Of a stretch of 64,000 nucleotides of DNA, positions 16,360 to 46,806 are shown in pieces. Source of the DNA: an uncultured virus (IMG/VR IMGVR_UViG_3300021171_000137). Its lineage: Duplodnaviria; Heunggongvirae; Uroviricota; Caudoviricetes. Position 1 is the stretch's first letter. The number at the start of each line of letters is the position of its first letter. The stretch lies in the IMG/VR virus record IMGVR_UViG_3300021171_000137; one strand, given 5' to 3'. The notes under the pieces were generated by a model. The model was not told the origin of the DNA, made no database searches, and worked only from the letters and a program-made list of their open reading frames with translations. The translations under genes and the position numbers were made by a program.

Positions 16360-16796
16360 ACCCGTCCGACGTTTCCACGCTGGCCAAGGCGCTGGAGGAA
16401 ATGGCCGACGCCCTGTGCGTCAAAGCCCCCGGCAAAGCAGGCCTGGGCGTGTGGCTGCGCGTCTTGCAGCACCAGCCGATCGGAAAGGTGATCGATGCGG
16501 TCGACGAGTGGGTCCGCACCAAACCCAAGATGCCGACGCCAGCCGATATCCTGGGCGTCCTGAGCAACCGCGTGTCGAGCAAGATCGAAGCGCATTCGGC
16601 CACTCGGCAGGCGATCGCCCATTTCGAGCGCCCTGCGCCTGGCTCGATCGCGCACGCCACCTACCTCGCCAGTTTTCGTCGCATCAGCGATTGCTTGCCG
16701 GATCTGCGCCGGCCATCCCTTGCGCTGGATTCAGAAGCAGCGCGGGAAGCGCAGGCCGAGCGCGCGGCGATCGCCGCGCAGGACGAGCCGCTGTGA
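16356..16796 (+). CDS. Putative helicase-loader/replication accessory protein
   Basis: Coupled to initiator; W...AVDEW...KMPTPADI pattern. Confidence 0.5.
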   Translation: MNPSDVSTLAKALEEMADALCVKAPGKAGLGVWLRVLQHQPIGKVIDAVDEWVRTKPKMPTPADILGVLSNRVSSKIEAHSATRQAIAHFERPAPGSIAHATYLASFRRISDCLPDLRRPSLALDSEAAREAQAERAAIAAQDEPL

Positions 16797-17473
16797 TTCA
16801 CTACCATGGCACACCGATCACGCCGCGGCACCAGCTGTACCGGATGGCTGGGCGCCACTTCTGCGTTTCCTTCGCGCGTCCGGATGACTTGGAGCCGTGT
16901 CTTTCAATCGGCCAGTCGGTGATGCTCGACAACGGCGCCTTTTCGGCCTTCACGCGGGGCGAGCCGTTCGACCTGGATGCCTACGTGAAATGGGTTGAAC
17001 CGGTTCTGGCGCATCCGCACTGGGCCGTGATCCCGGACGTGATCGACGGCAGCGTGGCCGATCAGGACAGGATGATCGCGCAGTGGCCACGGTCGTACCG
17101 CGACCTGAGCATGCCGGTGTGGCACCTGGGGCTGCCGATTCAATACCTGCTCGAGCTTGCGCAGCGGTTCCCGCGGATCTGTTTCGGCTCGAGCGCCGCT
17201 TATTGGGACGTCGGATCGGACGCCTGGTGCGGTCGCATGGACGAGGCTTTCAACGCGCTCGCGCAGCGCCATCACGGTTTGCCTTGGGTGCACGGCCTGC
17301 GAATGCTGGGGATGGCTGGCTTGCGCTGGCCCCTCGCCTCTGCGGATTCGAGTAACGTCGCGCAAAACCACACCCGGACCGGATGCGCCGAATGCATGGC
17401 CGCGGTGCTGGATAGCACCCAATGCCGGACTGGCTGGAAGCAGATCGAAACGCAGCAAAGGATGTTTGCATGA
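16793..17473 (+). CDS. TGT/DpdA-like TIM-barrel protein (putative base-exchange enzyme)
   Basis: HYHGTP, MLDNGAFS, IPDVI, PVWH, VHGLR, ADSS motifs; GTG start overlaps previous stop. Confidence 0.55.
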   Translation: MIHYHGTPITPRHQLYRMAGRHFCVSFARPDDLEPCLSIGQSVMLDNGAFSAFTRGEPFDLDAYVKWVEPVLAHPHWAVIPDVIDGSVADQDRMIAQWPRSYRDLSMPVWHLGLPIQYLLELAQRFPRICFGSSAAYWDVGSDAWCGRMDEAFNALAQRHHGLPWVHGLRMLGMAGLRWPLASADSSNVAQNHTRTGCAECMAAVLDSTQCRTGWKQIETQQRMFA

Positions 17474-22228: not shown

Positions 22229-22447
22229 ATGCCACTGCGCTGCGTTGGCTGTGGCCACTCCTTTGCGTCCGGCGAGGCCTTCGACCTTCACGCTACCGGG
22301 GTTCGGCGCGCTCCGCGCAATGCGCCAAAGCGCTGCCGCAGCACAGAAGAGATGCGCGACCTCGGCATGAACATGAGTTCGCAGCACACGTGGCGCTTGA
22401 AGGTACCGCGCAGCAGTCGCAACGAGCGAAGCATCCAGACGCCATGA
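22229..22447 (+). CDS. Small Zn-binding phage protein (CxxC...FDxH)
   Basis: CVGCGHSF...FDLH...RC. Confidence 0.55.
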   Translation: MPLRCVGCGHSFASGEAFDLHATGVRRAPRNAPKRCRSTEEMRDLGMNMSSQHTWRLKVPRSSRNERSIQTP

Positions 22448-23142
22448 ACATGATGTCCGACCCCACTAACTCGCAGCTTGCCGGCGCTCTCGACGGCAAC
22501 GGCGCTGCCCGTAAATCCATCGACTGGGAGCGCGTCGAAATCGATTTTCGCGCTGGTTTCAAGACCTTACGCGAGATTGCCGGTCAGCACGGCATCACCC
22601 ACGCCGCGATTCAGAAGCGCGCCAAGCGTGACGGCTGGGACCGCGACCTTCAGGGGCGCATCCACGCCAAGGCCGCCGCGCTGGTAGCCAAACAGTCAGT
22701 AGCCAAGCCGGGTAGCCAAGTCAGCAAGGCTACCGAGCGCGAGGTTGTCAGCGCCGAAGCCGCCATCATCGCCCAGGTCCAGACCGGCCGGCGCGCCATG
22801 GTCGAACGCCTGCGCAGCGCCGCGACCAAGCTCGTTGCCGAAATGGAGGGCATGGATGCCAACGCGTCGACCGCCCTGCTGGGCCAGCTGCGCGACCTGG
22901 CCGAAAAGATCGAGGATCCGAACGCCCGCCGCGGTACCTTGAACCAGATTTCCGACGTCGAAAACGCCGTGACGCTCGAGGCGCGAATCACCATGTTCAA
23001 CAAGCTGATGTCCAGTGCCGGGGCCCTGCTACTCGCCGAGGCCGACGTTTACGGGTTGTCGAAGGATGCGCCGGCCGGGTCCGTGCCGGCGGGTCTGTCC
23101 CTCTTCTACCCGGAGCCGGAATCACCCGGCGCGCCATCATGA
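22444..23142 (+). CDS. Terminase small subunit
   Basis: IDWERVEIDFRAG..TLREIA..HGI...AIQKRAKRDGW HTH; lies upstream of TerL. Confidence 0.8.
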   Translation: MNMMSDPTNSQLAGALDGNGAARKSIDWERVEIDFRAGFKTLREIAGQHGITHAAIQKRAKRDGWDRDLQGRIHAKAAALVAKQSVAKPGSQVSKATEREVVSAEAAIIAQVQTGRRAMVERLRSAATKLVAEMEGMDANASTALLGQLRDLAEKIEDPNARRGTLNQISDVENAVTLEARITMFNKLMSSAGALLLAEADVYGLSKDAPAGSVPAGLSLFYPEPESPGAPS

Positions 23143-23406: not shown

Positions 23407-24849
23407 ATGCCGTTCGATCGGCGCCCGCGGCTCAATCCCGTACTTAAACCGTTCTGGGACCAGAACACCGATCCGGCCACCGGCAAGCAGATTCGGATCC
23501 GGGTCCTGTACGGCGGCCGCGCCTCGAGCAAGACCTGGGACGCGTGCGGGCGCCTGATCTACATGGCCGACAACGCGCGCCTGCGGGTGTGCTGTTGCCG
23601 GCAGTTCCAGAACAAGCTCTCCGAGTCCGTTCAGCCGGTGCTGGTCGACACCATCGACCGGTTCGGCTTGGGGCGCCGGTTCATCGCGCACGAAGCCAAG
23701 ATCGTCAACAAGGCCACCAAGTCGGAATTCCTCTTCTACGGCATCTGGCGCCAGATTCGGGAAATCAAGGGCCTCGAGGGCATTGACGTCTTCCTTATCG
23801 AGGAAGCCGAGGCGCTGACAGAGGAACAGTGGCTCGTGATCGAGGCCACCGCGCGCAAACGCGGCGCCCAGCTCTGGATCATCTTCAATCCGTACCTAGC
23901 GACCGATTTCGTCTACCAGCATTTCGTGCTGAACCCGCCCCCCCGAACGATCGTTCGGCTGATCAATTACGAGGAAAACCCGTTCCTGGCGCCGGACTTC
24001 CTCGAAACGATCATCGAACTGAAGGCGCGCGATTTCGAGGAATACCAGCACATTTACCTTGGCGTGCCGAAGACGGACGAAGAATCGTCCGTGATCAAGC
24101 GGTCCTGGCTGATGGCCGCGGTCGATGCGCACTTGGCGCTGAACGTAGAGCCGAAGGGAGCGCGCCGGATCGGGTTCGACGTAGCCGACGAAGGCAAGGA
24201 TCTGAACGCCCAAGTCTTCGGGCATGGGCCGCTCGTTTCGTGGTCCGAGCAGTGGAAAGGCGGCGAAGACGAACTGCTGAAGTCCTGCACGCGCGTGTAC
24301 CGCGAGGCTACGAACCGCGGTGCCCATATCGTGTACGACTCGATCGGCGTGGGCGCCATGGCGGGCGCGAAATTCGGCGAGTTGAACTTGGCAAATCATT
24401 TGCACCCGCCAGCGCTCGAGCCGGACTATGCGAAATTCATCACGTACTCGAAGTTCAACGCGGGTGCCGGGGTCTGGCGCCCGGATGCGAAATACGCCAG
24501 AACGACCACGCAGAACAAAGACCAGTTCGCGAATCTGAAGGCTCAGACCTGGTGGCTGGTCGCTGATCGCTGCCGCAACACGTACAACGCGGTGCGCAAG
24601 GCCGAAAAATTCAAGGAAGACGAAATCATTTCGTTCGCTTCCGATACTCCGAACCTGCAAAAACTGATCGCCGAACTATCTACGCCGAAGCGAGACTTCG
24701 ATCAAAACGGACGAGTCAAGGTGGAATCAAAGAAGGATCTGCTGAAGCGCGAAGTGCCATCGCCGAATCTGGCGGACGCGTGCGTCAGCATCTTCGCCCC
24801 TGGCCTGGATCCGATGCGCATTTCCGCCGCGGCGATCGCAGGCGCGTAA
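23407..24849 (+). CDS. terL: Terminase large subunit (PBSX-like)
   Basis: YGGRASSKT, CRQFQN, IEEAE, IFNP, GFDVAD, SPNLADA motifs. Confidence 0.93.
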   Translation: MPFDRRPRLNPVLKPFWDQNTDPATGKQIRIRVLYGGRASSKTWDACGRLIYMADNARLRVCCCRQFQNKLSESVQPVLVDTIDRFGLGRRFIAHEAKIVNKATKSEFLFYGIWRQIREIKGLEGIDVFLIEEAEALTEEQWLVIEATARKRGAQLWIIFNPYLATDFVYQHFVLNPPPRTIVRLINYEENPFLAPDFLETIIELKARDFEEYQHIYLGVPKTDEESSVIKRSWLMAAVDAHLALNVEPKGARRIGFDVADEGKDLNAQVFGHGPLVSWSEQWKGGEDELLKSCTRVYREATNRGAHIVYDSIGVGAMAGAKFGELNLANHLHPPALEPDYAKFITYSKFNAGAGVWRPDAKYARTTTQNKDQFANLKAQTWWLVADRCRNTYNAVRKAEKFKEDEIISFASDTPNLQKLIAELSTPKRDFDQNGRVKVESKKDLLKREVPSPNLADACVSIFAPGLDPMRISAAAIAGA

Positions 24850-27843
24850 ATGAACTGGCTCGCGAAGGTTGCCGCGCTGGCGCGTGGCTGGCACCTCTCT
24901 CCCCCCTCGAAAGGCCCTGCGCCAGCCTCGTCCGCACTGGAAACGGTCGCCAGCGCGGCACCCCTCGGCACGCCGAACCGGCGTGCCCCGATGAGGATCA
25001 GCGACGAGGCCTTGGCCGCGGCTGGGCCGACTTCCGCCGGCACGAAATGGGAAACGGCTGACCCTCACCCGGGTGTGATTCCGAGCAAGCTAAAGCTCGC
25101 GATGGACTCGGACATGTCATCCACGTTCGACTGGATGACGAACAGCCGCTTTAGCGAGGGGATGACCTTCTTCGGTTACCCGTACTTGGCCGAACTGACC
25201 CAGCGGGCCGAATACCGCCGTCCGTCGGAAATCATCGCCAAGGCGATGACGATGAAATGGATCAAGTTCACCGCCACGGGAGAACAAAACAAAGACGACA
25301 AGATCGACGTGATCGAGGCCGAATTCAAGCGGCTCAAGGTGCAGGACCGGCTTTGCACGATGTCCGAGCATGACGGGTTTTTCGGCCGTGGGCAGCTGTT
25401 CCTAGACATGTTCGGGGTCGACGTGGAGGTCGACCGCACTGAACTGGCGATGCCGTTGCTCGATGTGAGGTCCAAGATCGGCAGAGGTATTCAGCAACTC
25501 GTTCCGGTCGAAGCGATGTGGACGTATCCGAATCGCTACAACAGCCAAAATCCGCTCAAACCGGACTTCTTCAAGGCGACCAGCTGGTATGTGATGGGCA
25601 CGGAAGTGCACGCCAGCCGAATGCTGACGTTGGTAAGCCGGCCGGTGCCGGACATGCTCAAACCGGTGTACGGGTTCGGGGGCCTGTCGCTCACGCAGAT
25701 CATGAAGCCGTACGTGGACAACTGGCTGCGCACGCGGCAGTCGGTGTCGGACCTGATCCACAATTTTTCCGTGATGGCGCTCAAGACGGACCTGACCGAC
25801 ATCATGAATGCGGGCGCCGGCACGCAGATGTTCAATCGAGCAGACCTTTTCAATCGGGCGCGCGATAACCGCAGCTTGTTCATGCTCAATAAGGACACTG
25901 AAGAACTCGACAACATCAGTGTTCCGCTGGGTACTCTGGATGCATTGCAGGCGCAGTCACAGGAACACCAGGCTGCGGTGACCGGCATCCCGCTCATCAT
26001 CATGTTCGGCATCACGCCCAAGGGCCTGAATGCGACGGCTGAGCCGGAACTGAAGACGTTCGGGCGCAATGTCCTGAGCTGGCAGCAATCGCTGTATACG
26101 CCGCCGATCACGCGAATTCTGAACATCGTTCAGCTTGCGAAGTTCGGTGAAATCGATCCTGAAATCGGTTTCAAGTACGAACCGTTGACGGACGACGATA
26201 TGAAGATCCTGGCCGAAACCCGCAAGGTGGAGGCCGACACCGACGAAGTGATGATCAATTCCGGCGTCATTTCGCCGGCTGAGGCGCGCAACCGGGTGGC
26301 CCAGCAGGAAGACTCGCCCTATTCCGGGCTGGACGTGAGCATGGTGCCCGAACCGCCTGGCGAGGAAGGGATGGGCCTGCCTGGCCTGGGTCCGGAGGGC
26401 GAGCCTGGACCCGAACAGCCGCCGAATCCGAACGCGGGCGCGGTGCCGCCCCCCAATGGAGCACGGCCGCCGGGCGCGCGCCCTAATGGCGCCGTGCCGG
26501 CCCACGATGAAAAGTGGATCACCGTACACGGCGGCAAAGAAGGCGGTGGCCAGCCGGTGCTGATCACCGAAGGCGGGGTGGTCAAGGGTGGCGCGGGCGG
26601 CAGCATGAACGGGATGGTGCTGCGCAAAGCCGGCAAGGAAGGCGCGGGCGAGGCGCCCAAGCCTGAGCATTCGGCCAAGCTCGAGGGGTTGCTGAAGTCT
26701 TTGCAGAACCGCAACCGCTCGAGCGCGGCGAGCATCAACCAGATGTCCAAGATCGCGGCCAACCCGAACCCGCGCCTACTGATGGCAGCGCCCACGATGG
26801 CCGACGGCGCGCCCGTGGTGGCCGATCTTCACGGTCGCGGGATTGCCGTGGCCACCGGCCACCGGGACATCATCGTGACGCCAAAGCGCGAACTGGGCGT
26901 TCGTTACGCGGTGGTCGAAGCCGATCAGATATCCACGTCCAACAGCGCTGACGGCGTGAAGAACGCCGACTACGCCAAAGACCCTGACAAGATGGTCGCG
27001 ATCAATAACGGCCGCACGGCCGGCGTCATCGAGGCCTACAAGAAAGGCACCGCGGATGCCTACAAGGCGGCGATCGCCGCGGGCGCCAAGGTGCACGGGA
27101 TCCCGGGCAAGACGATCCGCGCGATGAAATCGCCGGTACTGGTCCGGGTCATGGATGCAGACGACGTGTCCGAGGGCATAGCAGACGAGTCGAACACGAC
27201 GCAGACCTTGACGCTGTCGGCGGTGGAGCAGGCCCGAAACGACGCGGATCGGTTCGATGCGTCCCAGATCGATTACGACGATGATGGGCAGCCGTCCGAG
27301 GCCTCAGTGCGCGGTTTCATACAGACGATGCCGGCCTCGGAACAGCAGTCGCTTGCGCCGAACGGGCGCCCTACCCGCCAGGCGATAGACCGGATGCACG
27401 CGGCGACCTTCCACGCTGCTTACGGCGATTCGGAACTGGTCGGGCTGATGGCTCAGGCGACCGACCCGGAATCCAGAACCCTGATCGCCGGCATGAGCCG
27501 CGCGGCCGGCTCGATGGCCAAGCTGAAAGACGCGGGCGAACTGGACATCCGCGAACTGGTCACCGGTGCTGCCAAGCAAATCATCAACGCGGTGCGCTCC
27601 GGCGTGTCAGTGAAGAAGTTCCTGAAACAGGGCGATCTACTCACGAACAGCGCCGAAGGCGCCATCGCCAGCATGATGGCGGAGAACATTCGCAGCGGTA
27701 AGGCGATCGGCGAACGCTTGGGATCGGCGGCCGATTTCGCTTTCCAGGAATCTCAACGAGGCGGCATCGACATTTTCGGGGAGCAGATCCCGACCGCGAG
27801 CCGCGAAGACGTACTGAAGGGGATTGGTCATGCTGAGCCCTGA
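24850..27843 (+). CDS. DUF1073-type portal protein fused to a C-terminal DdrB/ParB-like payload
   Basis: Portal motifs FFGYPYLAELTQRAEYR and FGITPKGLNAT; Pro/Gly linker; then LQNRNR...GAPVV...YAVVEAD...NGRT...MKSPVLVRV. Confidence 0.85.
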   Translation: MNWLAKVAALARGWHLSPPSKGPAPASSALETVASAAPLGTPNRRAPMRISDEALAAAGPTSAGTKWETADPHPGVIPSKLKLAMDSDMSSTFDWMTNSRFSEGMTFFGYPYLAELTQRAEYRRPSEIIAKAMTMKWIKFTATGEQNKDDKIDVIEAEFKRLKVQDRLCTMSEHDGFFGRGQLFLDMFGVDVEVDRTELAMPLLDVRSKIGRGIQQLVPVEAMWTYPNRYNSQNPLKPDFFKATSWYVMGTEVHASRMLTLVSRPVPDMLKPVYGFGGLSLTQIMKPYVDNWLRTRQSVSDLIHNFSVMALKTDLTDIMNAGAGTQMFNRADLFNRARDNRSLFMLNKDTEELDNISVPLGTLDALQAQSQEHQAAVTGIPLIIMFGITPKGLNATAEPELKTFGRNVLSWQQSLYTPPITRILNIVQLAKFGEIDPEIGFKYEPLTDDDMKILAETRKVEADTDEVMINSGVISPAEARNRVAQQEDSPYSGLDVSMVPEPPGEEGMGLPGLGPEGEPGPEQPPNPNAGAVPPPNGARPPGARPNGAVPAHDEKWITVHGGKEGGGQPVLITEGGVVKGGAGGSMNGMVLRKAGKEGAGEAPKPEHSAKLEGLLKSLQNRNRSSAASINQMSKIAANPNPRLLMAAPTMADGAPVVADLHGRGIAVATGHRDIIVTPKRELGVRYAVVEADQISTSNSADGVKNADYAKDPDKMVAINNGRTAGVIEAYKKGTADAYKAAIAAGAKVHGIPGKTIRAMKSPVLVRVMDADDVSEGIADESNTTQTLTLSAVEQARNDADRFDASQIDYDDDGQPSEASVRGFIQTMPASEQQSLAPNGRPTRQAIDRMHAATFHAAYGDSELVGLMAQATDPESRTLIAGMSRAAGSMAKLKDAGELDIRELVTGAAKQIINAVRSGVSVKKFLKQGDLLTNSAEGAIASMMAENIRSGKAIGERLGSAADFAFQESQRGGIDIFGEQIPTASREDVLKGIGHAEP

Positions 27844-28003
27844 TGCGAAAGCGATCTGGAAATCCCCGGCTGGCGGGAACTTGGTGCGCGCGATGCTGGG
27901 ATTGAAACCGTGGGAGGAAGAGGATCGGCAGACGGCGCGCGAACTGGCCAAGCTAAGCATTCCGGAAGATGACGATGGCGAAGGCGGCGAAGACGACGAT
28001 TAA
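27830..28003 (+). CDS. 57-aa protein with acidic tail (not in the ORF track)
   Basis: ATG 27830 overlaps portal end; MLSPDAKAIWKSPAGG...EDDDGEGGEDDD, stop TAA 28001-28003. Confidence 0.5.
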   Translation: MLSPDAKAIWKSPAGGNLVRAMLGLKPWEEEDRQTARELAKLSIPEDDDGEGGEDDD

Positions 28004-28850
28004 AGTCGCCGCGCCTATCCACCCCAACGTTGGCCTCGAGGTCGAATACCGGCGCCGGCTGCTATTGCTGATTGCCCAGATGCACAACAGCGTCGTGCAC
28101 TGGCTCACCGCCGCGTATCGGGCGCACACGCCGCGCATGGCGCAGGACGACGCCCCATCGGTCATCCTGCGCCGGATCATCCGGGCTCTGGCCAAGCGCT
28201 GGCAGCAACGGTTCGATGAACTGGCCCCGGACCTAGCCGAGTATTTCGCGACCAAGGTTAGCGAGCGCACCGACGCGGCGCTGAAGGCGATTCTGGCAAA
28301 GCACGCTTTTTCTGTGCGGTTGCGCACAACGCCGCTCACCCGCGACGTCTGGCAAGCGACCACGGGCGAGAACGTGTCCCTGATCAAATCGATCCCGCAG
28401 CGCTACTTCACAGACATCGAAACCGAGGTCATGCGATCGGCCGCGGTAGGGCGCGACCTTGCGGCGCTGACCGACTACCTGGGGCCGAAGGTGAACCTGG
28501 CGCGTATCGGCCTGGGTCGCAAGCCCGGCGAGTCTAACAAGTCACTCTCGGCACGCACCGAACGCCGGGCCGCTCTGATCGCACGGGACCAGAACAACAA
28601 GGCGACCGCGACGCGTATCCGCGTGCGGCAGCATGAACTGGGGATCACCGAAGCGATCTGGGTGCACAGCGGCGGCGGACGCGAGCCGCGCCCGGATCAT
28701 GTCGCGTGGGGCGCAGCGCGAAAACGCTACAAGATCAGTGAAGGCATGTGGTCCGAGAAGGAACAGCAGTACATCTTTCCGGGCGAGTTGATCAATTGCC
28801 GGTGTGTCAGCCGGTCCGTGATTCCGGGACTCGGTCGAATGGAGTCGTAA
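27969..28850 (+). CDS. Phage head morphogenesis protein (MuF/SPP1 gp7-like)
   Basis: RAALIARDQNNK, WVHS...PRPDH, PGELINCRC. Confidence 0.88.
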   Translation: MTMAKAAKTTIKVAAPIHPNVGLEVEYRRRLLLLIAQMHNSVVHWLTAAYRAHTPRMAQDDAPSVILRRIIRALAKRWQQRFDELAPDLAEYFATKVSERTDAALKAILAKHAFSVRLRTTPLTRDVWQATTGENVSLIKSIPQRYFTDIETEVMRSAAVGRDLAALTDYLGPKVNLARIGLGRKPGESNKSLSARTERRAALIARDQNNKATATRIRVRQHELGITEAIWVHSGGGREPRPDHVAWGAARKRYKISEGMWSEKEQQYIFPGELINCRCVSRSVIPGLGRMES

Positions 28851-29897: not shown

Positions 29898-30236
29898 ATG
29901 GGAGCCCTGACCTCTGCCCTGTCCGCCCAGATGATCCAGGCCATCGCGGCGGGCGACACGCAAACGCTTGCGCAAGTGCTGAACCAGCTGATGCGAGCGC
30001 CGCAGACCGGCCCGACCGTCGCCACGACCTATCCAGGCAACGGCATCCCCTACACGAATCCGGGCCCTTATCTGCAAACGGTCACCATCGACGGTGGCAC
30101 CATCACCGTGATCACACTATCGCAGGGCGGCATCACGGGCCTTACCTCGGGCCAGTTTTTGCTGCGGCCAGGCGACGCTGTGACATGCACGTCCAGCGTC
30201 AATCCGACCGTGTTCAACGTCACCAATATCCTCTGA
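29898..30236 (+). CDS. Putative virion accessory protein
   Basis: GGAG RBS; Thr/Gly-rich beta composition. Confidence 0.6.
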   Translation: MGALTSALSAQMIQAIAAGDTQTLAQVLNQLMRAPQTGPTVATTYPGNGIPYTNPGPYLQTVTIDGGTITVITLSQGGITGLTSGQFLLRPGDAVTCTSSVNPTVFNVTNIL

Positions 30237-30245
30237 GGTTATCCG

Positions 30246-30959
30246 ATGACATCCCTGACTCCAGCGCAAGCGCGCGCCATTGCCAGCGGGGATGCGCCCA
30301 GCACGGCCGCGGCCGTAGCGCAGGCAATCAGCGGCGGGGGCGGCGGCGGTATGACGAATCCGATGACCGCTTCCGGCGATCTGATCGACGGCGGCACAAG
30401 CGGCACGCCGGAGCGGATACCGATCGGATCTACTGGCCAAGTCCTGACGGTCGTTGCGGGCGAACCAGCGTGGGCAGCGGCCACCGGTCTTGCCAATCCG
30501 ATGACCACGGCTGGCGACATCATCATCGGCGGGGTTTCCGGAGCAGCGGCAAGGCTTGGCATCGGCACCGCCAACTACGTTCTGACTTCGGTGGCGGGCG
30601 CTCCAGCATGGACTGCGCTTCCGGCCACTGGGAGTGCCCCACCGATTAACCCGCAAACCGGGACGAGTTATCACCCGGTTCTCGCCGATGCGCCACAGTC
30701 TTCGAATTACGAGGGCTGGGTCACCATGAACAACGCCTCGGCCAACAACGTGACGCTCGACCCGCACAGCACGACGGCCTGGGTCACGGGTACGCTCATT
30801 GTCGTGCCACAACTTGGCGCCGGACAGACGGCGTTCGTGGCAGGTGCCGGCGTGACCTTTGCGAACCCCAGTTCGCTCACGGCGCGCGCCCAAAACTCCA
30901 CCATATGGGCCAAATATTTGGGCAGCGATACCTGGCTGATCGGTGGGGACCTGACGTGA
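30246..30959 (+). CDS. Head/tail fibre-like protein
   Basis: Two NPMTxxGDxIxGG...RxxIG repeats; C-terminal QLGAGQ...WLIGGDL domain. Confidence 0.65.
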   Translation: MTSLTPAQARAIASGDAPSTAAAVAQAISGGGGGGMTNPMTASGDLIDGGTSGTPERIPIGSTGQVLTVVAGEPAWAAATGLANPMTTAGDIIIGGVSGAAARLGIGTANYVLTSVAGAPAWTALPATGSAPPINPQTGTSYHPVLADAPQSSNYEGWVTMNNASANNVTLDPHSTTAWVTGTLIVVPQLGAGQTAFVAGAGVTFANPSSLTARAQNSTIWAKYLGSDTWLIGGDLT

Positions 30960-31630
30960 CTGGCGCTTTAGCGACGCGCTATCGCAGCAGCATCATCGTC
31001 AGCACTGCGCTGCTGCACTTCGATGGCACGAATGGTTCGACCACCTTTACCGACGTTTACTCAAGTACGTGGTCGGGTAGTAGTGCGACGCTATCGACGG
31101 CACAGCAGAAGTTCGGCCCCAGTTCGCTGTTGCTTCCTGGCGGTGCTTTTATAAGCACGAGCAACGATATCTTCGCTGCGCTCCTTCAGGATTGGACCTA
31201 TGAGGCTTTTGTCTACGCCATCAGCATTGGGGGATCACAGGTTATCTTCGGTTCACAAGGTGCCGGATTTTCGGGAGTGCTTTTATTTCTAAACGGCGGC
31301 GTGATCACTTTGCTATGCGGCAGTGCTGACGGCGGTACCAATTGGAGTGTCGCGTTTACCTCGGGTGCAACTCTGTCAACGGGCACCTGGTATCACGTGG
31401 CAGGTGTCAGGCACGGAAATAATTTCAACACCTACTTGAACGGTGTTTCACAAGGATCCGCTACGTATAGCGGTTCAATTATCAAAGGCATGACGGGCCA
31501 GGCGATCGGAGCGGCTAATGCTGGCGGCACTAGCAGCTGGAACGGATACGTTGACGAAGCACGCATTTCCATGGGAGTCGCGCGCTACACAGCGAATTTC
31601 ACCCCGCCTGCGGCGCCCTTCACCTATTAA
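30956..31630 (+). CDS. LamG/concanavalin-like domain protein
   Basis: ALLHFDGTNGSTTFTD...WYHVAGVR...GYVDEARISMGVARYTANFTPP. Confidence 0.8.
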   Translation: MTGALATRYRSSIIVSTALLHFDGTNGSTTFTDVYSSTWSGSSATLSTAQQKFGPSSLLLPGGAFISTSNDIFAALLQDWTYEAFVYAISIGGSQVIFGSQGAGFSGVLLFLNGGVITLLCGSADGGTNWSVAFTSGATLSTGTWYHVAGVRHGNNFNTYLNGVSQGSATYSGSIIKGMTGQAIGAANAGGTSSWNGYVDEARISMGVARYTANFTPPAAPFTY

Positions 31631-31639
31631 AACGATGCC

Positions 31640-34600
31640 ATGCCATTCGATCCGGGCTACGCCGGCACTGCCGTTACCGAAGGCGCCGGCATTGCGTTCA
31701 TCACCCCGGACGGCCTGTGCCTGTTCCTGAAGCGCTCGAGCCGCGGCGATCACGCGGGCGAATGGTGCCTGCCAGGTGGCACCGCGAAGGATGATGAAAC
31801 ACCGCTCGAGACGGCTCGGCGCGAGGCGATCGAGGAAATTGGTGACATCCCGGAAGGAAAGCTGCGCGAGCTGGCGCATCTGACACTGGATGGCGTCGAA
31901 TTCGTCACCTTCGTGCAGCGCGTCAAAGATGACCTCTTCGCTCCGGAATTGAACTACGAACACACGGATCACATTTGGGCGCAGATCGACGATCCGCCCG
32001 AACCGCTGCACCCTGGCGTAGAACGCATCCTGCCGATGCTTGCCGCGGCGCGCATGGGAATGGACGCTGAGTGGGACGAGTCCAAGCACCCGCGCGACGA
32101 GGGTGGACGGTTCGGTGAGGGCGGTGGCGCTGCGCCATTCAACCGGGAAGCCAATCGGGCTAAACAAAAGGATCTACTGCGGCAATCCAATGCGCTGCGG
32201 GCGAGCAACCCACAGGAAAGTCGCCGTCTGTATGAACAGGCCAACGCGCTCCAGGAAGAAGACCTAGCCAACGAAAAGAAGGAAAAAACGGCCGCGAAAC
32301 GTGCCGCAACCGTGCAGGCGAAAAAGAGCGCTGCACAAGCTGAGCACATCGACGAGCACGGCTTCACGCGCGCCGCGGGCCTGAGCCCTGAGCACCGCGC
32401 GATCGAGCAGGGCTTCTACGACGCGATCCGCCACAACCCGAAGGCGCTGATCGGTACCTATCGCAAGCGCTTCGGCAACGTGATCGATCCGGACAAGGTG
32501 AAACTCCTGTCCCGATCGTTCGTCGGCGATCGCAAGCTCGCGCCGGTGGTTCATGAGCCCTCTTCGCTGCTGTCGAAGATGATCTTCACGGCGGCACTGA
32601 AGGACAAGGCCGCGCGCGGCGATAAGAGCCCGACCTTGTTCACGGCCGGCGGCAGCGGGTCGGGCAAGTCCGAAGCGATGGACGTCGCGATCCAGGCGCT
32701 AGGGCTGCCTGACGATGGCTTGACCTTCGATTCGACGCTGTCGAACACGAAGTCCGCGATCAAGAAAATCGACGAGGCGCTGAACACGGCCCCGGGCCCG
32801 GTCAGCATCGTTTACACGAACTCGCCCATCGAGAAGGCTTTCGCGTTCAACGCGATCCGCAAGCGGGCCGTACAAGGCGCAACGCTCGAGCACGCGCATC
32901 TGGGCGCCTCGAAAACGGTGCGCGAACTGGCGCAGCACTATGCGGGCAATCCCAGAGTCAAGATCAATATCCTGAACAATCAGGGCCACCTGGGCGATAT
33001 CCACGTCGGATCGATCGATGATGTTCCGAGGTATGATCCAGAGGTCATCAAGTCGTCTCTGAAACTCGTTGCCAAAAAGCTGCTCGACGATGGCCGAATC
33101 AAGCAAGACCGATACGAATATCTCACTGGATCCGGCCAAGGTGGCGGAAGCCGTGAAGAAGTTCGCGGCCAAACATCAGGGCAAGACCTTGGTGGATCTG
33201 GCGAACGAAGCGGACGACCAGGCGGACCAGGAAGCGCAAGCCTTCCTGAAGGATCATCCGGACGAGACAGTTCCGTAGACGATAGCGGGCGCCCTGCCCG
33301 CTTGGCTGGCGATGAGCTGGCCGAAGATCCCGAACTGGCATTCGATCGCGCCACCGGCGAACGGCTGGCGTTCGATCGCGCGAGCGTGCGCAGCTACGAC
33401 CAGGACGGCCGGCTGCACATCGAGGTCGCCAACATCAGCAAGGCGACCGTCAACCCGTACTACGGTTTCGAGATTCCGGACGCCGAAGAACTCGGGCTCG
33501 AACCACGCAAGGTCTATTACCTGCTGCGCGATCCGCAGGAATTGGCCAAGGCGGTTCCGACCTTCAACAACATTCCGCTCCTGTCCGATCACCGGCCCAC
33601 CACCGCTGATGACCTGGACAAGGAACTGGTGATCGGGTCGACCGGAACGGATGCAGCCTTCAATGCGCCGTACCTCACCAATTCGCTCGTGTTCTGGGAC
33701 GGGGACGCGTGCGACCAGATCGAAACGAATCAGACGCGTGAACTGTCGGCTTCGTACCGGTACGTGGCCGATATGACGCCGGGCGTATTCGAGGGGCGCC
33801 GTTACGACGGCGTGATGCGTGAAATCCGAGGCAACCATGTCGCACTGGTGCGGGACGGTCGCGCGGGATCCGACGTAATCGTGGGAGATAGCCAACCAAA
33901 GGAGTCAGGTCAGATGGGAACCACCCAGCAAGTGCTGTCACGGAAGGCCATGCTGGCGAAGGGAGCCTTGCTCGCGGTCCTTCCGCCACTGCTGGCAAAA
34001 GACGCGCGCCCCGCGTTCGCAAAGGATCTGAACAAGATCCTGATCGGGTGCGCCTCGGATAACTGGAAGACGAAAAAGCCCGAAATCATCGCCGCCGTTC
34101 GCAAGCTGAAACTGCCGGCGACTGTCCTGGCCAAGGATGCGAGCGTTGCATCCCTGACGCAATTGCTTGACGGGCTCGAGGGCGAAGCCGGGGGCGAGCC
34201 GCCAGCTGGCGAGCCGGCGCCCGGCGGCGCCGAACCGCTGGATTCCGATTATGGTGCAGCCGGTGATGCCCCGCCGGCCGAAGGCGAACCGCCAGCCGCG
34301 CCGGCCGCCGCAGCACCGGCGGCACCGGGCGCCAAGCCGGGGGAAGCCGATCCGGTGAACGAAATCCTGGAGGCTTTAAAGCCCCACCTGAAGCCTGAGC
34401 ATCACGCTTGGCTGGGCGAAAAGCTCAAGGCGCTGCGCCCCGCCGGCCCGCATGCCGAAATTGCGCCAGCGGGCTCGCCCACTCCGGCAGAAACGAAGCC
34501 GGCCCAGGATGAACCGCCTGGCGGCGAAGGTCAGCCCAAACCCCCAGCAACCTCACCCGGCAAGGACCCCCTCAAGGACAAGGACGCAGCCATGACCCAA

Positions 34601-34957
34601 GCAGTCAGCAAGGCCGCCATGGACGCGGCGATCGCCGAGGCGACCAAGAACACGCGCAAGGAAACCATGGCGCAGATGCGCGCCCTGGCCGACGCCGAGG
34701 CCTTCGTGCAGCCGTGGGTCGGCAAGCTCACCCTCGCCTGCGATACGGCTGAGGGCGTCTTCAAGGCGGCGCTCGAAGCCTTGGAAATCGACTTAACCGA
34801 CGTGCACCCGACCGCCTACAAGCACATTCTGGCCGCGCAGCCCAAGCGCCGGCCCGACGGTGAGCCGCCCCCGCGCATGGCGGCGGACTCCGCGGCGACG
34901 GTCGACAGCGTGATTGCCAGTCTGTCGCCAGCCGCGGCAGGCCTGCGCGTCGTGTAA
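31640..34957 (+). CDS. Polyprotein: NUDIX hydrolase + zeta-toxin-like P-loop kinase + DUF2213 prohead protease/scaffold
   Basis: Complete Nudix box [22 protein letters not shown]; Walker [19 protein letters not shown]...[11 protein letters not shown]...ELSASY...[13 protein letters not shown]. Confidence 0.88.
33090..33278 (+). CDS. Overprinted small acidic protein (candidate antitoxin)
   Basis: +1 frame inside the polyprotein linker; this frame has GC-rich third positions while the host frame is G/S/R low-complexity with many A/T-ending codons. Confidence 0.6.
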
Positions 34958-34993: not shown

Positions 34994-36169
34994 ATGTTCC
35001 CTGGACAAGTAAACACCGTACCCGGCGTAGGCGTGGCCGGCGACTTCGCAAGCACGAATATCCGCGCATCGGTGATCAACGGGCCGGGCGCGTTCGTGGC
35101 GGCCGCGGCCGGCATTGTCATCGGTGCCTTTGGCTGGGCCGATGCGAGCAACAGGTTCGTGAGCAACGCCGGGATCGGCGCGCCCACCGGCTTTGCCGGT
35201 CGGCACCCGGGCGCGGCCCTTATCACGCAATTCCTGGCCGACAACACCCAGATCATCCCGCAAGGCCTGGGCGTGACCCTGTACAGCGAGGGCGAATTCT
35301 GGGTACTGAACAGCGGCTCGAGCGCGTCGGCCATCAACAACAAGGCCTACGCGAATAACAGCACGGGCTTGGTGACGTTCGCCGCCACCGGCACCCCGCC
35401 GGCTGGCGCAACCAGCACGGCCTCGTCGATCGCGCTGAACAACACGACCGCTGGCCACCTGGACTTGCTGGCCGCCACCGGCTACGTCGTGCCGTACACC
35501 GGCGCGGGCGGCGGGGGCTTGCTGAATGTCACTGTCACGGGCGGTTCGATCGGGCCGGGAATGGTGCTGTCTGGCACCAACCTGGATCCGGCCACGACCG
35601 TCGTGAAACAGCTCACCGGCTCCACGGGATCGACCGGAACCTACCAGGTCAACATTTCGCAGACCGTGGGTTCGTCCGGCACGCCGATCACGCTTACGGC
35701 GCCGAACTGGTCGACCCTGACCATCGCGACCACTATCACGGGCGCCTTCCTTCCGGGGCAAACCCTGACCGGTACCGGCGTTGCCGCGGGCTCCACGATC
35801 TACCAACAGCTCACGGGAGCCACGCCCTCGACCAACGGGGCGACCTTCTCGGTCTTTTCTGCGATTGCCCAGACGGCGGCCACGTCGACCTCGATCACGG
35901 CTTCCGGCGGAACACTGACGGTCGGGGGCACGCTTACCGGCACCTTCGCGGTCGGGGATCTGCTGACCGGCTCGGGCGTGAACGCGGGCACGTCCATCAT
36001 CGCGCTGGGCACGGGCACGGGCGGGGCGGGCACGTATTACCTGAACCAGGGCCAAACCCTGTCCTCGCAGGCGATCAACGCCAACTCCGGCACCGAAACC
36101 AAGTGGTACGCGCTGTCGGTCGGTCAACCCGGCGAACTCGTCAAGATGAGCAGCTGGCCGCTCGGCTGA
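34994..36169 (+). CDS. Capsid decoration/cement protein with repeated beta-module insertion
   Basis: GVAGDFASTN N-terminus, GELVKMS C-terminus; lies between scaffold and capsid genes. Confidence 0.75.
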   Translation: MFPGQVNTVPGVGVAGDFASTNIRASVINGPGAFVAAAAGIVIGAFGWADASNRFVSNAGIGAPTGFAGRHPGAALITQFLADNTQIIPQGLGVTLYSEGEFWVLNSGSSASAINNKAYANNSTGLVTFAATGTPPAGATSTASSIALNNTTAGHLDLLAATGYVVPYTGAGGGGLLNVTVTGGSIGPGMVLSGTNLDPATTVVKQLTGSTGSTGTYQVNISQTVGSSGTPITLTAPNWSTLTIATTITGAFLPGQTLTGTGVAAGSTIYQQLTGATPSTNGATFSVFSAIAQTAATSTSITASGGTLTVGGTLTGTFAVGDLLTGSGVNAGTSIIALGTGTGGAGTYYLNQGQTLSSQAINANSGTETKWYALSVGQPGELVKMSSWPLG

Positions 36170-36206: not shown

Positions 36207-37319
36207 ATGGACAGAATGCCCGACAGACTCGCATACGACCTGTCGTTGCGCGAGCAGCGCGCGGTGCTCGATTTTTACCGCGAAACCTATGGCATCGCTT
36301 TTGACGGCGCTCAGGTGTTCGTCAAGCCTTCCTGGAAGCGCGACTTCAAGGGAGCCTACGACGCGCAGCCGCAGCTTGTTACCACCCCGCAGTCCGGCAT
36401 TCCGGCCTTCCTGGTCACGTTCCTGGATCCGGAAGTGCTGCGGATCCTGACCGCGAAGAACGCCGCGGCTGAAATCTTCGGCGAAGTCCGCAAGGGCTCA
36501 TTCGTCGACGTGACGGCCGTCTTCTCGGTCGTTGAACACACGGGCGAGGTCTCGACCTACGGGGACTTTTCGCAGGCGGGCAAGTCCGGCGCCAACACGA
36601 ACTTCCCACAGCGCGAAAACTACCTATACCAGACCATCGCCGAGTACGGCGAACTGGAAATGGAGCGCATGGGCGCGGCCAAGATCGGCTGGGCCTCGGA
36701 ACTGAAGCAGGCTTCGATCGTGAACCTGAACAAGTTCCAAAACCTGTCCTACTTCTTCGGCATCGCCGGCCTTCAGAACTACGGGTTGCTGAACGATCCG
36801 TCTCTTCCTGCGGCGATCGCGCCGGGACCAAAGGCGGCCGGGGGCCTGACCTGGTTCATCGGCAACAGCCCCAACGCGACGGGCCTGGAGGTCTACAACG
36901 ACATCGTCGCCCTGGTCGTGCAGCTCATTGCGCAATCGGGCGGCAACATCAACGCCGAATCCGACATGGTGCTGGGCATGTCGCCGCACTCGGCGGGCGC
37001 GCTCAATTTCACGAACACGTACAACGTGAACGTGAAAACGCTGCTTGGCACCAACTACCCGAACCTGAAGGTGGTTCCGGCCATCCAGTACGGGGCCCTG
37101 ACCACTCAGAACGCGCAAGGGTCGGCGGCGGGCGAAATCGTGCAGCTGATCGCTACCAAGGTCGAAGGCCAGGAAACGGGCTACTGCGCGTTCAGCGAAA
37201 AACTGCGCGCCGGCCCGATCATCCGCGACCTTTCGAGCTACAAGCAAAAGATGACGCAAGGAACGTGGGGCGCAGTCATCCGCCAGCCATTCGCCATCGC
37301 GCAGATGATTGGGGTCTGA
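36207..37319 (+). CDS. Major capsid protein (DUF2184-like)
   Basis: SGIPAFL, GEVSTYGD, YFFGIAGLQNYGLLNDP, TWGAVIRQPFAIAQMIGV. Confidence 0.9.
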   Translation: MDRMPDRLAYDLSLREQRAVLDFYRETYGIAFDGAQVFVKPSWKRDFKGAYDAQPQLVTTPQSGIPAFLVTFLDPEVLRILTAKNAAAEIFGEVRKGSFVDVTAVFSVVEHTGEVSTYGDFSQAGKSGANTNFPQRENYLYQTIAEYGELEMERMGAAKIGWASELKQASIVNLNKFQNLSYFFGIAGLQNYGLLNDPSLPAAIAPGPKAAGGLTWFIGNSPNATGLEVYNDIVALVVQLIAQSGGNINAESDMVLGMSPHSAGALNFTNTYNVNVKTLLGTNYPNLKVVPAIQYGALTTQNAQGSAAGEIVQLIATKVEGQETGYCAFSEKLRAGPIIRDLSSYKQKMTQGTWGAVIRQPFAIAQMIGV

Positions 37320-41765: not shown

Positions 41766-43730
41766 ATGGGATCTTCCATCCCGGCATCGGCACTCGTTAA
41801 CATCGTTCCGGGTGTGATCGGGGCGGGCGGCAATGCTTTGCAGCTCACCGGCCTTTGCCTGACCCAGAATTCCCGCGTGCCGATCGGCACGGTAGCCTCA
41901 TATCCGTCGGCCCTGGCAGTCAGCGCGGCATTCGGCGGCAGCTCGAGCGAGGCGGCCGCGGCCGCGATCTACTTCGGCGGGTTCACCAATTCGACTGCCA
42001 AGCCGGGCGCGATGCTGTTTGTGCAGTATCCGTCCGTCGCGGTGCCAGCGTACTTGCGAGGGGCATCGGTCGCATCGATGACGCTCGCGCAGCTGCAAGC
42101 CCTGAGCGGATCGCTCACGGTCACGGTCGACGGCGAAGTGCAGACGGCTTCCTCGATCAGCCTGGCCGCGGCGACCAGTTTTTCGAACGCTGCGGCGCTC
42201 ATCGCCACCGCGTTTGCGGCCTATGACGGCGTCACGGCCAACACGACCACGATCGCCGTGGCCAGTTCCACGACCGGCACCGCTTCGATTACCGGCAACG
42301 TGATGAACGCCACCGCGGTCACGGGAACCTTGGTGGTCGGTGGCGTGATTTCCGGGACGGGCATCACTGCCGGCACCACCATCGTGTCCCAGCTCACCGG
42401 CATTGCGGGCGGCGTTGGCACTTACCAGGTATCGGTGATTCAGAACGTGGCTTCCACCGCGATCACGCAATCGGCTGGCCTGATGACCGTTTCCGGCAGC
42501 ATGGCGAGCGGCTTCCTCGCGGTGGGGCAGACCATCGTGGGCTCTGGTGTCGCGGTCGGGACCACGATCACGGCGCTGGGTAGCGGAACTGGCGCCGCGG
42601 GGACCTATTACACGTCCGGGGGTGCGCAGAGCGTATCGGCAACCACCATCAGCGCCGGCCCCCTGCTGTGCACCTACGACAGCGTATCCGGCGCCTTTAC
42701 GCTCACGGGCGGCACGCCAGGCGCGCCCGGCACGATCGGCTTTGCCACTGGCTCGCTTTCGGCCTCGTTACTGCTGACAGCGGCCACCGGCGCCGTGACC
42801 TCGCAGGGCGCGGCCGCGGCTACGCCAGCGGCATTCATGAACGCGGCGGTGAACATCACCACCAATTGGGCGAGTTTTTTCACACTGTTCGATCCGGACG
42901 GCGGTTACGGCAACACGCAAAAGGTGGCCTTTGCCAAATGGGCGGGCGGGGCGGTCGCGGTCAATAACTTCGCTTACATCTGCTGGGACACGGACGTCTC
43001 GCCCACGCTGTCCAGCAGCGCTACCAGCAGCTTGGGCTATATCCTCGAATCTACCGAAGTCTCTGGCACCTGCCCGATTTACTCGGTCGACTACACGATC
43101 GCCGCATTCGTGTGCGGCGCGATCGCATCGATCGATACGGCTCGCACCAACGGTCGCATCGCCTTCGCAAACAAGTCAAGTCCCAGCGGACTGACACCGA
43201 CGGTCACCAACCTGACCGCGTCCGTCAACCTCGCGGCCAACGGCTACAACTATTACGGCGCATGGGCCACGGCCAACCAGCAATTCATCGGGCTCGCGCC
43301 GGGAACCGTGACGGGTCCTTTCGAATGGCTCGATTCGTTTGTCGACCAGATTTGGCTGAACAATTCGTTCCAGGCCGCGCTCGTGAATCTGCTCTTCAAC
43401 GTGAACAGCATCCCGTACAACACGACCGGCTATGCACTGATCCGCAACACGTGCCTTGGCACTCCGGATGCGCCCGGGCCGATTCTGGCGGGTCTTAACT
43501 TCGGCGCCTTCGCCGGGGGCGTGCCGCTGTCGTCAACCCAGGTCGCGCAAGTGAACGCGGCCGCGGGAACGCGCATCGATGACGTGCTGTCGGCCAACGG
43601 CTGGTACTTGCAGATTCTTCCAGCGACGCCCACGGCGCGCGCGAATCGAACTACTCCCCCCTGTACGTTTTGGTATAACGACGCGGGATCGATTCAGCAG
43701 ATCACGCTTGCTTCGATCGAGGTGGAATAA
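41766..43730 (+). CDS. Tail sheath protein (DUF3383-like) with inserted beta modules
   Basis: IPASALVNIVPGV, NGYNYYG, WLDSFVDQIWLN, SIPYN, GWYLQI, FWYNDAGSIQQI. Confidence 0.88.
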   Translation: MGSSIPASALVNIVPGVIGAGGNALQLTGLCLTQNSRVPIGTVASYPSALAVSAAFGGSSSEAAAAAIYFGGFTNSTAKPGAMLFVQYPSVAVPAYLRGASVASMTLAQLQALSGSLTVTVDGEVQTASSISLAAATSFSNAAALIATAFAAYDGVTANTTTIAVASSTTGTASITGNVMNATAVTGTLVVGGVISGTGITAGTTIVSQLTGIAGGVGTYQVSVIQNVASTAITQSAGLMTVSGSMASGFLAVGQTIVGSGVAVGTTITALGSGTGAAGTYYTSGGAQSVSATTISAGPLLCTYDSVSGAFTLTGGTPGAPGTIGFATGSLSASLLLTAATGAVTSQGAAAATPAAFMNAAVNITTNWASFFTLFDPDGGYGNTQKVAFAKWAGGAVAVNNFAYICWDTDVSPTLSSSATSSLGYILESTEVSGTCPIYSVDYTIAAFVCGAIASIDTARTNGRIAFANKSSPSGLTPTVTNLTASVNLAANGYNYYGAWATANQQFIGLAPGTVTGPFEWLDSFVDQIWLNNSFQAALVNLLFNVNSIPYNTTGYALIRNTCLGTPDAPGPILAGLNFGAFAGGVPLSSTQVAQVNAAAGTRIDDVLSANGWYLQILPATPTARANRTTPPCTFWYNDAGSIQQITLASIEVE

Positions 43731-46802: not shown

Positions 46803-46806
46803 GCCG

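Follow-up and report, generated by a model that had tools for sequence, protein, structure and literature searches.

A phage portal gene extended by a rearranged DdrB-type ParB module

The window analysed here is a stretch of 64,000 nucleotides from an uncultured virus of the Caudoviricetes, a soil phage (IMG/VR record IMGVR_UViG_3300021171_000137). It carries a single uninterrupted open reading frame (ORF) of 997 amino acids (aa) in which a portal protein continues into a cargo of about 440 aa related to DdrB, a head protein of phage P1. We found that this portal-DdrB fusion is genuine and not an accident of assembly, and that the cargo domain belongs to a rearranged subfamily of ParB domains that we did not find described in the literature; the logic of such fusions is already published. 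Phage proteins injected with the DNA are the first to meet host defences, and very few of them have a known activity. The gene is a compact case, with one portal, one linker and one conserved module of 375 aa, and provides a simple construct for probing how the DdrB module acts and whether a portal-fused cargo is cleaved and ejected. It leaves the current picture of phage biology unchanged and fills in a known theme. The gene and its parts are:

24850..27843, + strand: whole gene, portal-DdrB fusion, 997 aa, single uninterrupted ORF
25087..26370, + strand: portal domain, aa 80-507 (PHROG 146 at aa 80-507, Pfam PF06381 at aa 112-466, homology to E217 gp19)
26338..26505, + strand: Pro/Gly-rich C-terminal portal tail, probably disordered, aa 497-552; the standalone portals of relatives have a tail of the same type
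26515..26601, + strand: junction motif WITVHGG...VVKGGAGG, aa 556-584, found ahead of the cargo in close relatives, whatever the cargo type
26701..26820, + strand: segment B of the ParB/sulfiredoxin (Srx) domain, with the QNRNR motif, a helix and the GAPVV strand, aa 618-657
26821..26994, + strand: segment A of the ParB/Srx domain, a beta-hairpin with YAVVEAD, aa 658-715, relocated (upstream of segment B in P1 DdrB)
26995..27153, + strand: segment C of the ParB/Srx domain, with a strand, the NNGRT helix, Tyr-bearing helices (Y730, Y738) and the PVLVRV strand, aa 716-768
27154..27840, + strand: helical domain, aa 769-997, a constant companion of the DdrB-type ParB domain (phrog_5143; aligns with P1 DdrB to about aa 410; no Pfam family)

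The ATG of the gene directly abuts the stop codon of the large terminase subunit gene (TerL; TAA-ATG). The order TerL (23407-24849), portal (24850-27843) and MuF (27969-28850) thus places the portal directly after the large terminase and ahead of the head genes. Phage_portal_3 (PF06381, formerly DUF1073) matches aa 112-466 with an E value of 1.7e-66 (224.8 bits against a cut-off of 33.8) over positions 3-356 of its 357-position profile, and phrog_146, named 'portal protein', matches aa 80-507 (E 1.9e-89). Among solved portals, the gp19 structures of phage E217 (8fvh and 9b41) match with E values of 1.6e-30 and 5.1e-30, their alignment reaching about aa 503, and the Pam3 portal matches with E 1.3e-7. 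These limits agree with an earlier sequence-only reading of the window, which had put the end of the portal near aa 500 and a Pro/Gly linker behind it; residues 508-589 are indeed 25% G and 18% P. By comparison with E217 and Pa193, the portal would form a dodecameric ring at one capsid vertex, and homology to solved portals shows that its C-terminus should face the head interior.

As the window is metagenomic-type sequence, and as none of the 786 deposited phage records matching the portal covers at least 80% of the protein, we considered whether mis-assembly, a lost stop codon or a frameshift in one metagenomic contig had joined two genes. The same portal-to-cargo ORF is found at IMG/VR loci L008/L013, L009 (98% identical) and L010, which are three further viral contigs, and the fusion also occurs in protein P0003, whose cargo is 94-95% identical to that of the window and whose portal is 79% identical. 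Eight more diverged fusions (P0021-P0024 and P0026-P0029) have the same part order with a cargo identity of 69-73%. The junction stretch is present in many soil-metagenome runs, and from one of these, run X5, an independent contig of 11,286 nt was compared with window positions 25900-27100. It covers 25900-27098 with 14 substitutions, all 14 of them synonymous, without gaps or indels. The standalone portals of the nearest relatives (L011 and L012) end in a Pro/Gly tail of the same kind, and the join therefore lies at the end of this disordered tail, in the linker. The artefact is thus effectively refuted, and we regard it as extremely improbable.

All 14 substitutions of the X5 contig lie before position 26191, with none over the next 900 bases. 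Together with the unequal identities of P0003 (portal 79%, cargo 94-95%), this mosaic divergence points to a boundary of recombination close to where the portal core ends. A metatranscriptome run, X9, also has contigs over parts of the junction region; such contigs are no evidence of transcription.

The cargo opens with the motif WITVHGG...PVLITEGGVVKGGAGG. Of 187 proteins carrying the DdrB module, 17 have it at a distance of 57-68 aa ahead of QxRxR, and 4 of 110 other portals have it where portal and cargo meet. Three of these four belong to the nearest portals (P0188-P0191, 68-70% identity), none of which carries DdrB; one of the three has an ADP-ribosyltransferase (ART) cargo and two have long unassigned tails. 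No family matched the motif; it may serve as a cassette at the junction or as a site for processing. At 26371 (+ strand; aa 508), GAGGAAGGG precedes an in-frame ATG. The case for an internal start there, which would yield free cargo, is weak, and such a start is not proposed because the same Met is present in the tails of standalone portals.

The extension, placed by the sequence-only reading at 26494-27843 (aa 549-997 and the stop codon), had been assigned there to the ddrB-like ParB domains. Comparison with Pfam bears this out, since PF18763 (ddrB-ParB) matches aa 616-768 with E 7.2e-23 and a score of 81.5 bits, its cut-off being 27.6; no other ParB family of Pfam matched the protein. Every motif quoted in support of the assignment is present at its given place: LQNRNRS at aa 618-624, QMSKIA at 631-636, GAPVV at 653-657, YAVVEAD at 686-692, NNGRT at 719-723, EAY at 728-730, DAY at 736-738 and MKSPVLVRV at 759-767. 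In PHROGs, the unnamed family phrog_5143 matches aa 712-990. BLASTP against P1 DdrB aligned cargo aa 670-977 with DdrB aa 27-410 (E 2e-28, 27% identity); as Pfam places the ParB domain of P1 DdrB at aa 36-167, the homology extends over about 240 further, helical residues. A tblastn search of deposited phages with the cargo returned 33 records, including P1, P7 and other P1-like phages at ddrB (26% identity, E about 1e-18) and Bacillus phage Dartukuta, in which the match is to a 'putative methyltransferase' of 4,203 aa (36% identity, E 8e-55).

In a full scan of 1.84 billion representative proteins, the cargo had 2519 relatives at E≤1e-3 and 435 at E≤1e-30, a very large family of representative clusters without biochemistry. 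Nearly all of the best 150 of these 2519 match query residues from about 18 to 393 as a single stretch, in proteins of 1000-4700 aa. By this sequence comparison, the ParB domain and the helical domain form one conserved module of about 375 aa, found mostly in giant multidomain proteins.

The order of the elements within the ParB domain differs from that of P1 DdrB. In the latter the order is A-B-C, with segment A (...VVTAKGDEVKTAFDIVDAS..SN..DG..NPDYPQE) followed by segment B (LQPRDR, helix, GAPII) and segment C (SGNGRT, Tyr helices, PVLVR), whereas in the window protein the order is B-A-C (B aa 618-657, A aa 658-715, C aa 716-768), with the hairpin between GAPVV and NNGRT. Canonical ParB sequences share the A-B-C order of P1 DdrB. 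The prototype succession of strand 1, QPR motif, helix, strand 2 and strand 3 with GxR is therefore not kept in the cargo, where QxRxR, helix and strand 2 come first and are followed by the strand-1 hairpin and strand 3 with GxR. Because segment A is relocated, the match to PF18763 is limited to profile positions 24-120 of 121 and contains an insertion of about 56 aa.

A permuted order had been suspected from the position of YAVVEAD behind GAPVV, and the suspicion proved correct. A segment A profile built from 132 proteins with the B-A-C order matched P1 DdrB at aa 26-71 (E 2.5e-10), P0050 at aa 1144-1188 (E 1.9e-8) and P0051 at aa 997-1039 (E 3.3e-6), each match ending at the QPRDR motif, so that in these three proteins the strand equivalent to YAVVEAD lies directly upstream of QPRDR. 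The profile did not match P0052, and none of 2000 shuffled decoys used as control was matched at E≤10. When the best 150 of the 2519 representatives were classified with a motif (regular expression) test, 114 had the B-A-C order, none had A-B-C and 36 were unclassified; the four canonical-order cases are P1 DdrB, P0050, P0051 and P0052. Judged from these sequences, the rearrangement is genuine and a trait of a large subfamily, not confined to the gene of the window, and gives no reason to exclude homology. The Pfam model describes only one of the two domain arrangements, which is relevant to annotation.

We did not find this rearrangement described in the literature. The phrase 'DdrB-like ParB' was found only in Iyer 2017 (PMC5512222), and 'permut' is absent from the main text of that paper, figures and external supplements excluded.

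An alignment of 38 sequences with identities down to 31% shows which residues are conserved. Invariant in segment B are R623, I635, A636, G653, A654 and P655. The invariant residues of the putative pocket are R623, G653-A654-P655, Y686, N720, R722 and Y738, while Q619, R621, Y730 and N782 are at least 90% conserved. Alignments of 38 and of 39 sequences both keep the pocket arginine R722 of NNGRT without exception, and the helices bearing Y738 and Y730 are found between the GR helix and the PVLVRV strand. The alignment shows the family-invariant residues to be all retained in the cargo. An Asp or Asn at the end of strand 2 is a further feature of the domain (Iyer 2017); candidates for it in the cargo are D659, which follows GAPVV, and D692, which ends YAVVEAD.

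AF2 models gave a mean predicted local distance difference test score (pLDDT) of 86.9 for aa 600-997, and of 88.7, with a predicted template modelling score (pTM) of 0.84, for the domain model of aa 612-795. A structure search with the domain model retrieved 8 of 48,161 PDB representatives at Z≥2, of which 7 belong to the ParB/Srx superfamily. The best match was KorB-CTP (8qa8_A; Z 4.7, root-mean-square deviation 3.0, 85 residues aligned), followed by PadC (3.2), two sulfiredoxins (2.8 and 2.1), Spo0J (2.6), pNOB8 ParB-N (2.4) and SerK (2.0), a serine kinase that we take to be a member of the same superfamily; the eighth was a retroviral protease. BFVD yielded 12 matches at E≤1e-3, 10 of them named as DdrB-like or multidomain polyvalent-type phage proteins, one unnamed and one 'uncharacterized'. 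On these models, the cargo is shown to have a predicted ParB/Srx fold. The likeness to canonical ParB and KorB cytidine triphosphate (CTP)-dependent clamps and to sulfiredoxin is at the level of the fold, with Arg motifs at equivalent elements. Unlike canonical ParB, the cargo has a relocated first strand, the motif NNGRTAG instead of a GERRxRA box, no recognised helix-turn-helix (HTH) and no adjacent ParA.

The VIA structure search with the whole cargo model (aa 600-997) returned mostly unspecific matches of helices (Z≤5.6), which lay in the C-terminal half, and for this reason the helical domain is left without a fold assignment. A protein atlas search with aa 790-997 returned only ddrB-ParB clusters, with scores of 0.77-0.85, under the level counted as meaningful. 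Sequence searches of the PDB gave no match at E≤1 with the cargo alone and only low-complexity noise with profile A2.

Both the portal-effector fusions and the DdrB-ParB family are already in print, and the gene is a further probable example of a phage effector anchored to a head protein. Iyer 2017 defines the DdrB-like ParB domain, places it among late and virion genes, and, drawing on other ParB/Srx proteins for analogy, discusses roles as nuclease or NTPase. The same paper treats PBECR, 2H and InPase domains fused to portal or MuF as cargo for injection, and Iyer 2022 (PMC9503650) reports NUDIX as a fusion partner of MuF, of the portal and of the capsid-processing peptidase, and ARTs as joined to head proteins. 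The combination of portal and DdrB-ParB was not found named in the available text of either paper (external supplements excluded). The logic is the same in the window, namely an effector carried on a head protein of a terminase-portal phage and presumed to be packaged and injected. The cargo is likewise encoded, as are the polyvalent proteins of Iyer 2017, among the virion and late genes of such a phage; those proteins carry 2-15 effector domains, while the window protein has one effector module only and is thus the simplest architecture.

The closest known counterpart is P1 DdrB (P1_gp022, 995 aa), a head-associated late protein whose ParB and following helical domains are homologous to the cargo. 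Its association with the P1 head and with antirestriction, stated in the sequence-only reading, is borne out by the literature, which places it in the Dar antirestriction system (PMC9024508, PMC12810830, PMC12707154) and in the P1 head by mass spectrometry (PMC9024508). Dar proteins are reported to be co-ejected with DNA (PMC12810830). P1 DdrB is a free protein with the A-B-C element order, whereas the module of the window is welded to the portal and has the order B-A-C. The alignment stops at aa 410 of 995 in P1 DdrB, and the window protein ends 20 aa later; the approximately 585 further C-terminal residues of P1 DdrB, where Iyer 2017 predicts a metallopeptidase, have no counterpart.

We consider it probable that the protein is a packaged effector anchored to the portal; its cargo, about 440 aa long, would be present in 12 copies per head and act when infection starts. 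In this proposal, the flexible C-terminal tail of the portal of a contractile-tailed phage would extend into the capsid, lengthened by gene fusion with a cargo made of the short junction motif, the DdrB-type ParB/sulfiredoxin-fold domain and the helical domain. Among the 'polyvalent' proteins inside phage heads, such a portal-anchored cargo would be the smallest form. Because the portal is a dodecamer, twelve copies would be loaded per head without a separate capsid-targeting signal, and they would sit at the DNA exit channel. The sequence-only reading had likewise suggested that a dodecameric portal would take up an enzyme, DNA-acting or anti-defence, in a set copy number, a reasonable suggestion that matches the published reasoning on portal and MuF fusions (Iyer 2017, 2022). 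As infection begins, the ParB/Srx pocket of the module would work on DNA or nucleotides, by binding or hydrolysis of nucleoside triphosphates (NTPs) or by DNA nicking, and the incoming genome would so be protected or established in the manner of the P1 Dar proteins. The module might act in the tethered state, or else once the DUF2213 prohead protease, whose gene lies 3.8 kb downstream, has cut the Pro/Gly linker. The copy number, cleavage, ejection, enzymatic activity and anti-defence role of the cargo are what we infer from these comparisons.

Several points weigh against a packaged effector. In absolute terms the cargo is weakly similar to ParB/Srx proteins of solved structure, the best Z being 4.7, and Foldseek found no PDB match at E≤1e-3 for either AF2 model. 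To our knowledge, no enzymatic activity has been demonstrated for P1 DdrB or any other DdrB. No experiment on the window protein or on any portal-DdrB fusion was found in the literature. A tethered cargo could not reach the host unless cleaved, and no cleavage site is known; the protein lacks the C-terminal metallopeptidase region that Iyer 2017 proposes to process P1 DdrB. P1 Hdf, DarA and DdrA, the three P1 proteins searched for, have no homologue in the window by tblastn at E≤1. Finally, the extra C-terminal region of the portal is simply not seen in the E217 and Pa193 structures. Residues 97-528 of 765 are modelled in the E217 portal and 529-765 unmodelled, and residues 529-765 of the Pa193 portal have no density. 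In favour of an interior cargo, the C-terminal barrel of the E217 portal 'projects into the head'.

The gp19 portals of these Pbunaviruses (E217, Pa193 and KPP12) belong to the same portal family and also come from myoviruses with an E217/Pam3-type cement protein, and they too have a long C-terminal addition. The E217 core is followed by a helical barrel, as opposed to the Pro/Gly tail of the window protein. In KPP12 (ORF17; L092 2180-4474, 765 aa), the portal combines Phage_portal_3 with InPase at aa 635-753 (E 3e-43), an inorganic pyrophosphatase-like cargo and not DdrB. The KPP12 portal is annotated only as 'putative minor head protein', and its InPase falls in the region that has no density in Pa193 and is unmodelled in E217.

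The P1 literature also allows the DdrB module to be seen as an interior docking or organising element for internal proteins or packaged DNA, non-catalytic in the host. The P1 proteome table gives the role of DdrB as 'aids DarB addition to capsid' (PMC9024508), the Dar proteins are said to enter the capsid in a fixed order (PMC12810830), and over half of the conserved module is the helical domain without a specific fold match. Yet Q619, R621, R623, N720, G721, R722, Y730, Y738, R766 and N782 are invariant or nearly so in the 38 sequences, and such near-invariance of pocket residues suggests selection on a ligand-binding site. Nor does the window encode a DarB-sized protein, its largest ORFs being of 1105 and 1085 aa, and the module is found beside enzymes in hundreds of different multidomain proteins. 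We judge a role confined to assembly to be unlikely.

It is also conceivable that the twelve ParB-like modules stay on the portal and act in the head or channel like an NTP-gated ParB clamp, either holding or marking the genome end or loading onto the exiting DNA and protecting it in cis. The best structural matches, KorB-CTP and PadC, are CTP-binding proteins of the ParB family, homology to E217 places the cargo where the DNA channel opens into the head, and P1 Dar protection is reported to work only in cis on packaged DNA (PMC12707154). However, the same module occurs in relatives without portal attachment, so that tethering is not essential to its function, and no HTH or dimerisation domain was recognised in it. 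The likeness of QxRxR, GxR and ExN to the CTP-pocket motifs of ParB is putative. Permanent tethering thus seems to us quite improbable, and the packaged effector remains our preferred reading.

How the module is combined with other domains was followed in its relatives. A module search, in which only the 7995 candidates sharing most words were scored, gave 51 matches: 10, the window's own protein included, carry the module with a portal, and 13 carry it without one, in NUDIX(-Zeta_toxin)-DdrB proteins at 72-76% identity. The architectures confirmed with Pfam were portal-DdrB, portal-Zeta-DdrB, portal-RelA/SpoT-DdrB (with a weak RelA/SpoT match), portal-850 aa-DdrB, NUDIX-Zeta-DdrB and Zeta-NUDIX-DdrB. 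Among 80 IMG/VR contigs with the DdrB module, it lies in the portal ORF only in the three that are near-identical to the window. The next relatives have a separate portal gene, the order in L011/L014 being portal, MuF, NUDIX-Zeta-like-DdrB protein and DUF2213 protease; in L012/L015 the order is the same, but the N-terminal part of the DdrB protein has no NUDIX or Zeta-like match. A scan of genome contigs found only six portals, none of them with the cargo.

The window itself holds a second fusion of this kind:

31640..34957, + strand: second cargo fusion, 1105 aa, with NUDIX, a P-loop kinase region and a DUF2213 head-maturation protease (Pfam, PHROGs, comparison with relatives)

In this protein, NUDIX occupies aa 15-132 and DUF2213 aa 584-751, followed by a long Ala/Pro/Glu-rich tail, and the P-loop kinase region is 31% identical to the Zeta_toxin-bearing part of the relatives' polyvalent proteins. 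By sequence comparison, the same cargo domains are thus spread differently over the head proteins: in the window DdrB appears on the portal and NUDIX with the P-loop kinase on the N-terminus of the protease, whereas in the relatives NUDIX-Zeta is joined to DdrB.

A survey of C-terminal extensions in this portal family, which had been recommended together with the original assignment, used the portal part of the window as query against proteins of 548-1745 aa and gave 1851 relatives at E≤1e-10. Extra Pfam domains are present in 56 of the best 120 of these, and a further 10 have long unassigned tails, shares that are inflated by the length filter since it removes short portals. The cargos among the best 120 of 1851 are:

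ADP-ribosyltransferase (ART): 15 portals
ddrB-ParB: 10 portals
NUDIX: 9 portals
type IB topoisomerase (Top1B): 9 portals
Zeta_toxin: 4 portals
PF18798: 4 portals
other: 5 portals

In a FastTree tree of the portal domains, the DdrB label needs at least 7 changes among 10 carriers; these labels are precomputed Pfam lists and many of the proteins lie on short contigs and may be truncated, so events were not counted from the tree. The survey and the tree nevertheless show, at the level of sequence, that the cargos at the C-terminus of this portal change often.

A wider proposal would join the rearrangement to this exchange of cargos. Most DdrB-type modules, including that of the window, would be a natural non-cyclic rearrangement of ParB/Srx that keeps the nucleotide pocket, and would act as NTP-gated clamps or nickases loading onto the exiting genome, while the portal C-terminus with its WIT...GG cassette would serve as a recombination socket for DdrB, ART, NUDIX, Top1B and Zeta-like kinase cargos. 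Loading of such clamps or nickases onto the exiting phage genome would explain why Dar-type protection acts only in cis. We hold this combined proposal to be doubtful; if true, the portal socket would offer a ready-made natural model in which protein loading into capsids, and release from them, could be studied.

Taken as a whole, the window is the genome, or the greater part of the genome, of a contractile-tailed phage, and also encodes baseplate proteins. Its main virion genes besides those above are:

22390..23142, + strand: small terminase subunit (phrog_1206, E 2e-40)
23407..24849, + strand: large terminase subunit (Pfam, PHROGs)
27969..28850, + strand: MuF-like head morphogenesis protein (Pfam, PHROGs)
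34994-36169: E217/Pam3-type cement protein
36207..37319, + strand: major head protein
41766-43730: tail sheath

Inside the head module, between the MuF and protease genes (29898-31630, + strand), lie inserted genes with tail-fibre or virion-structural-like C-termini (30246-30959). A Laminin_G_3/concanavalin-like domain is found at 30905-31630 (E 1e-21), and the 1085-aa protein at 46768-50025 has LamG repeats that resemble it.

Outside the virion genes, the ORF at 16415-17473 (+ strand) matches phrog_887, 'queuine tRNA-ribosyltransferase' (E 3.8e-49), with no Pfam match at E≤1e-3. DpdA-like phage homologues put 7-deazaguanines into DNA, and the product of this ORF, if DpdA-like, would be a second anti-restriction device. 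A P-loop ATPase of ParA/MipZ type is encoded at 8284-8925 (+ strand; PF13614 E 2e-14, CbiA, MipZ). This ParA-like gene hints at a plasmid-like prophage state; it lies 16 kb upstream of the DdrB-ParB domain, of which it is no evident partner. On the - strand, positions 2531-3322 encode a DUF4942 protein (E 2e-53).

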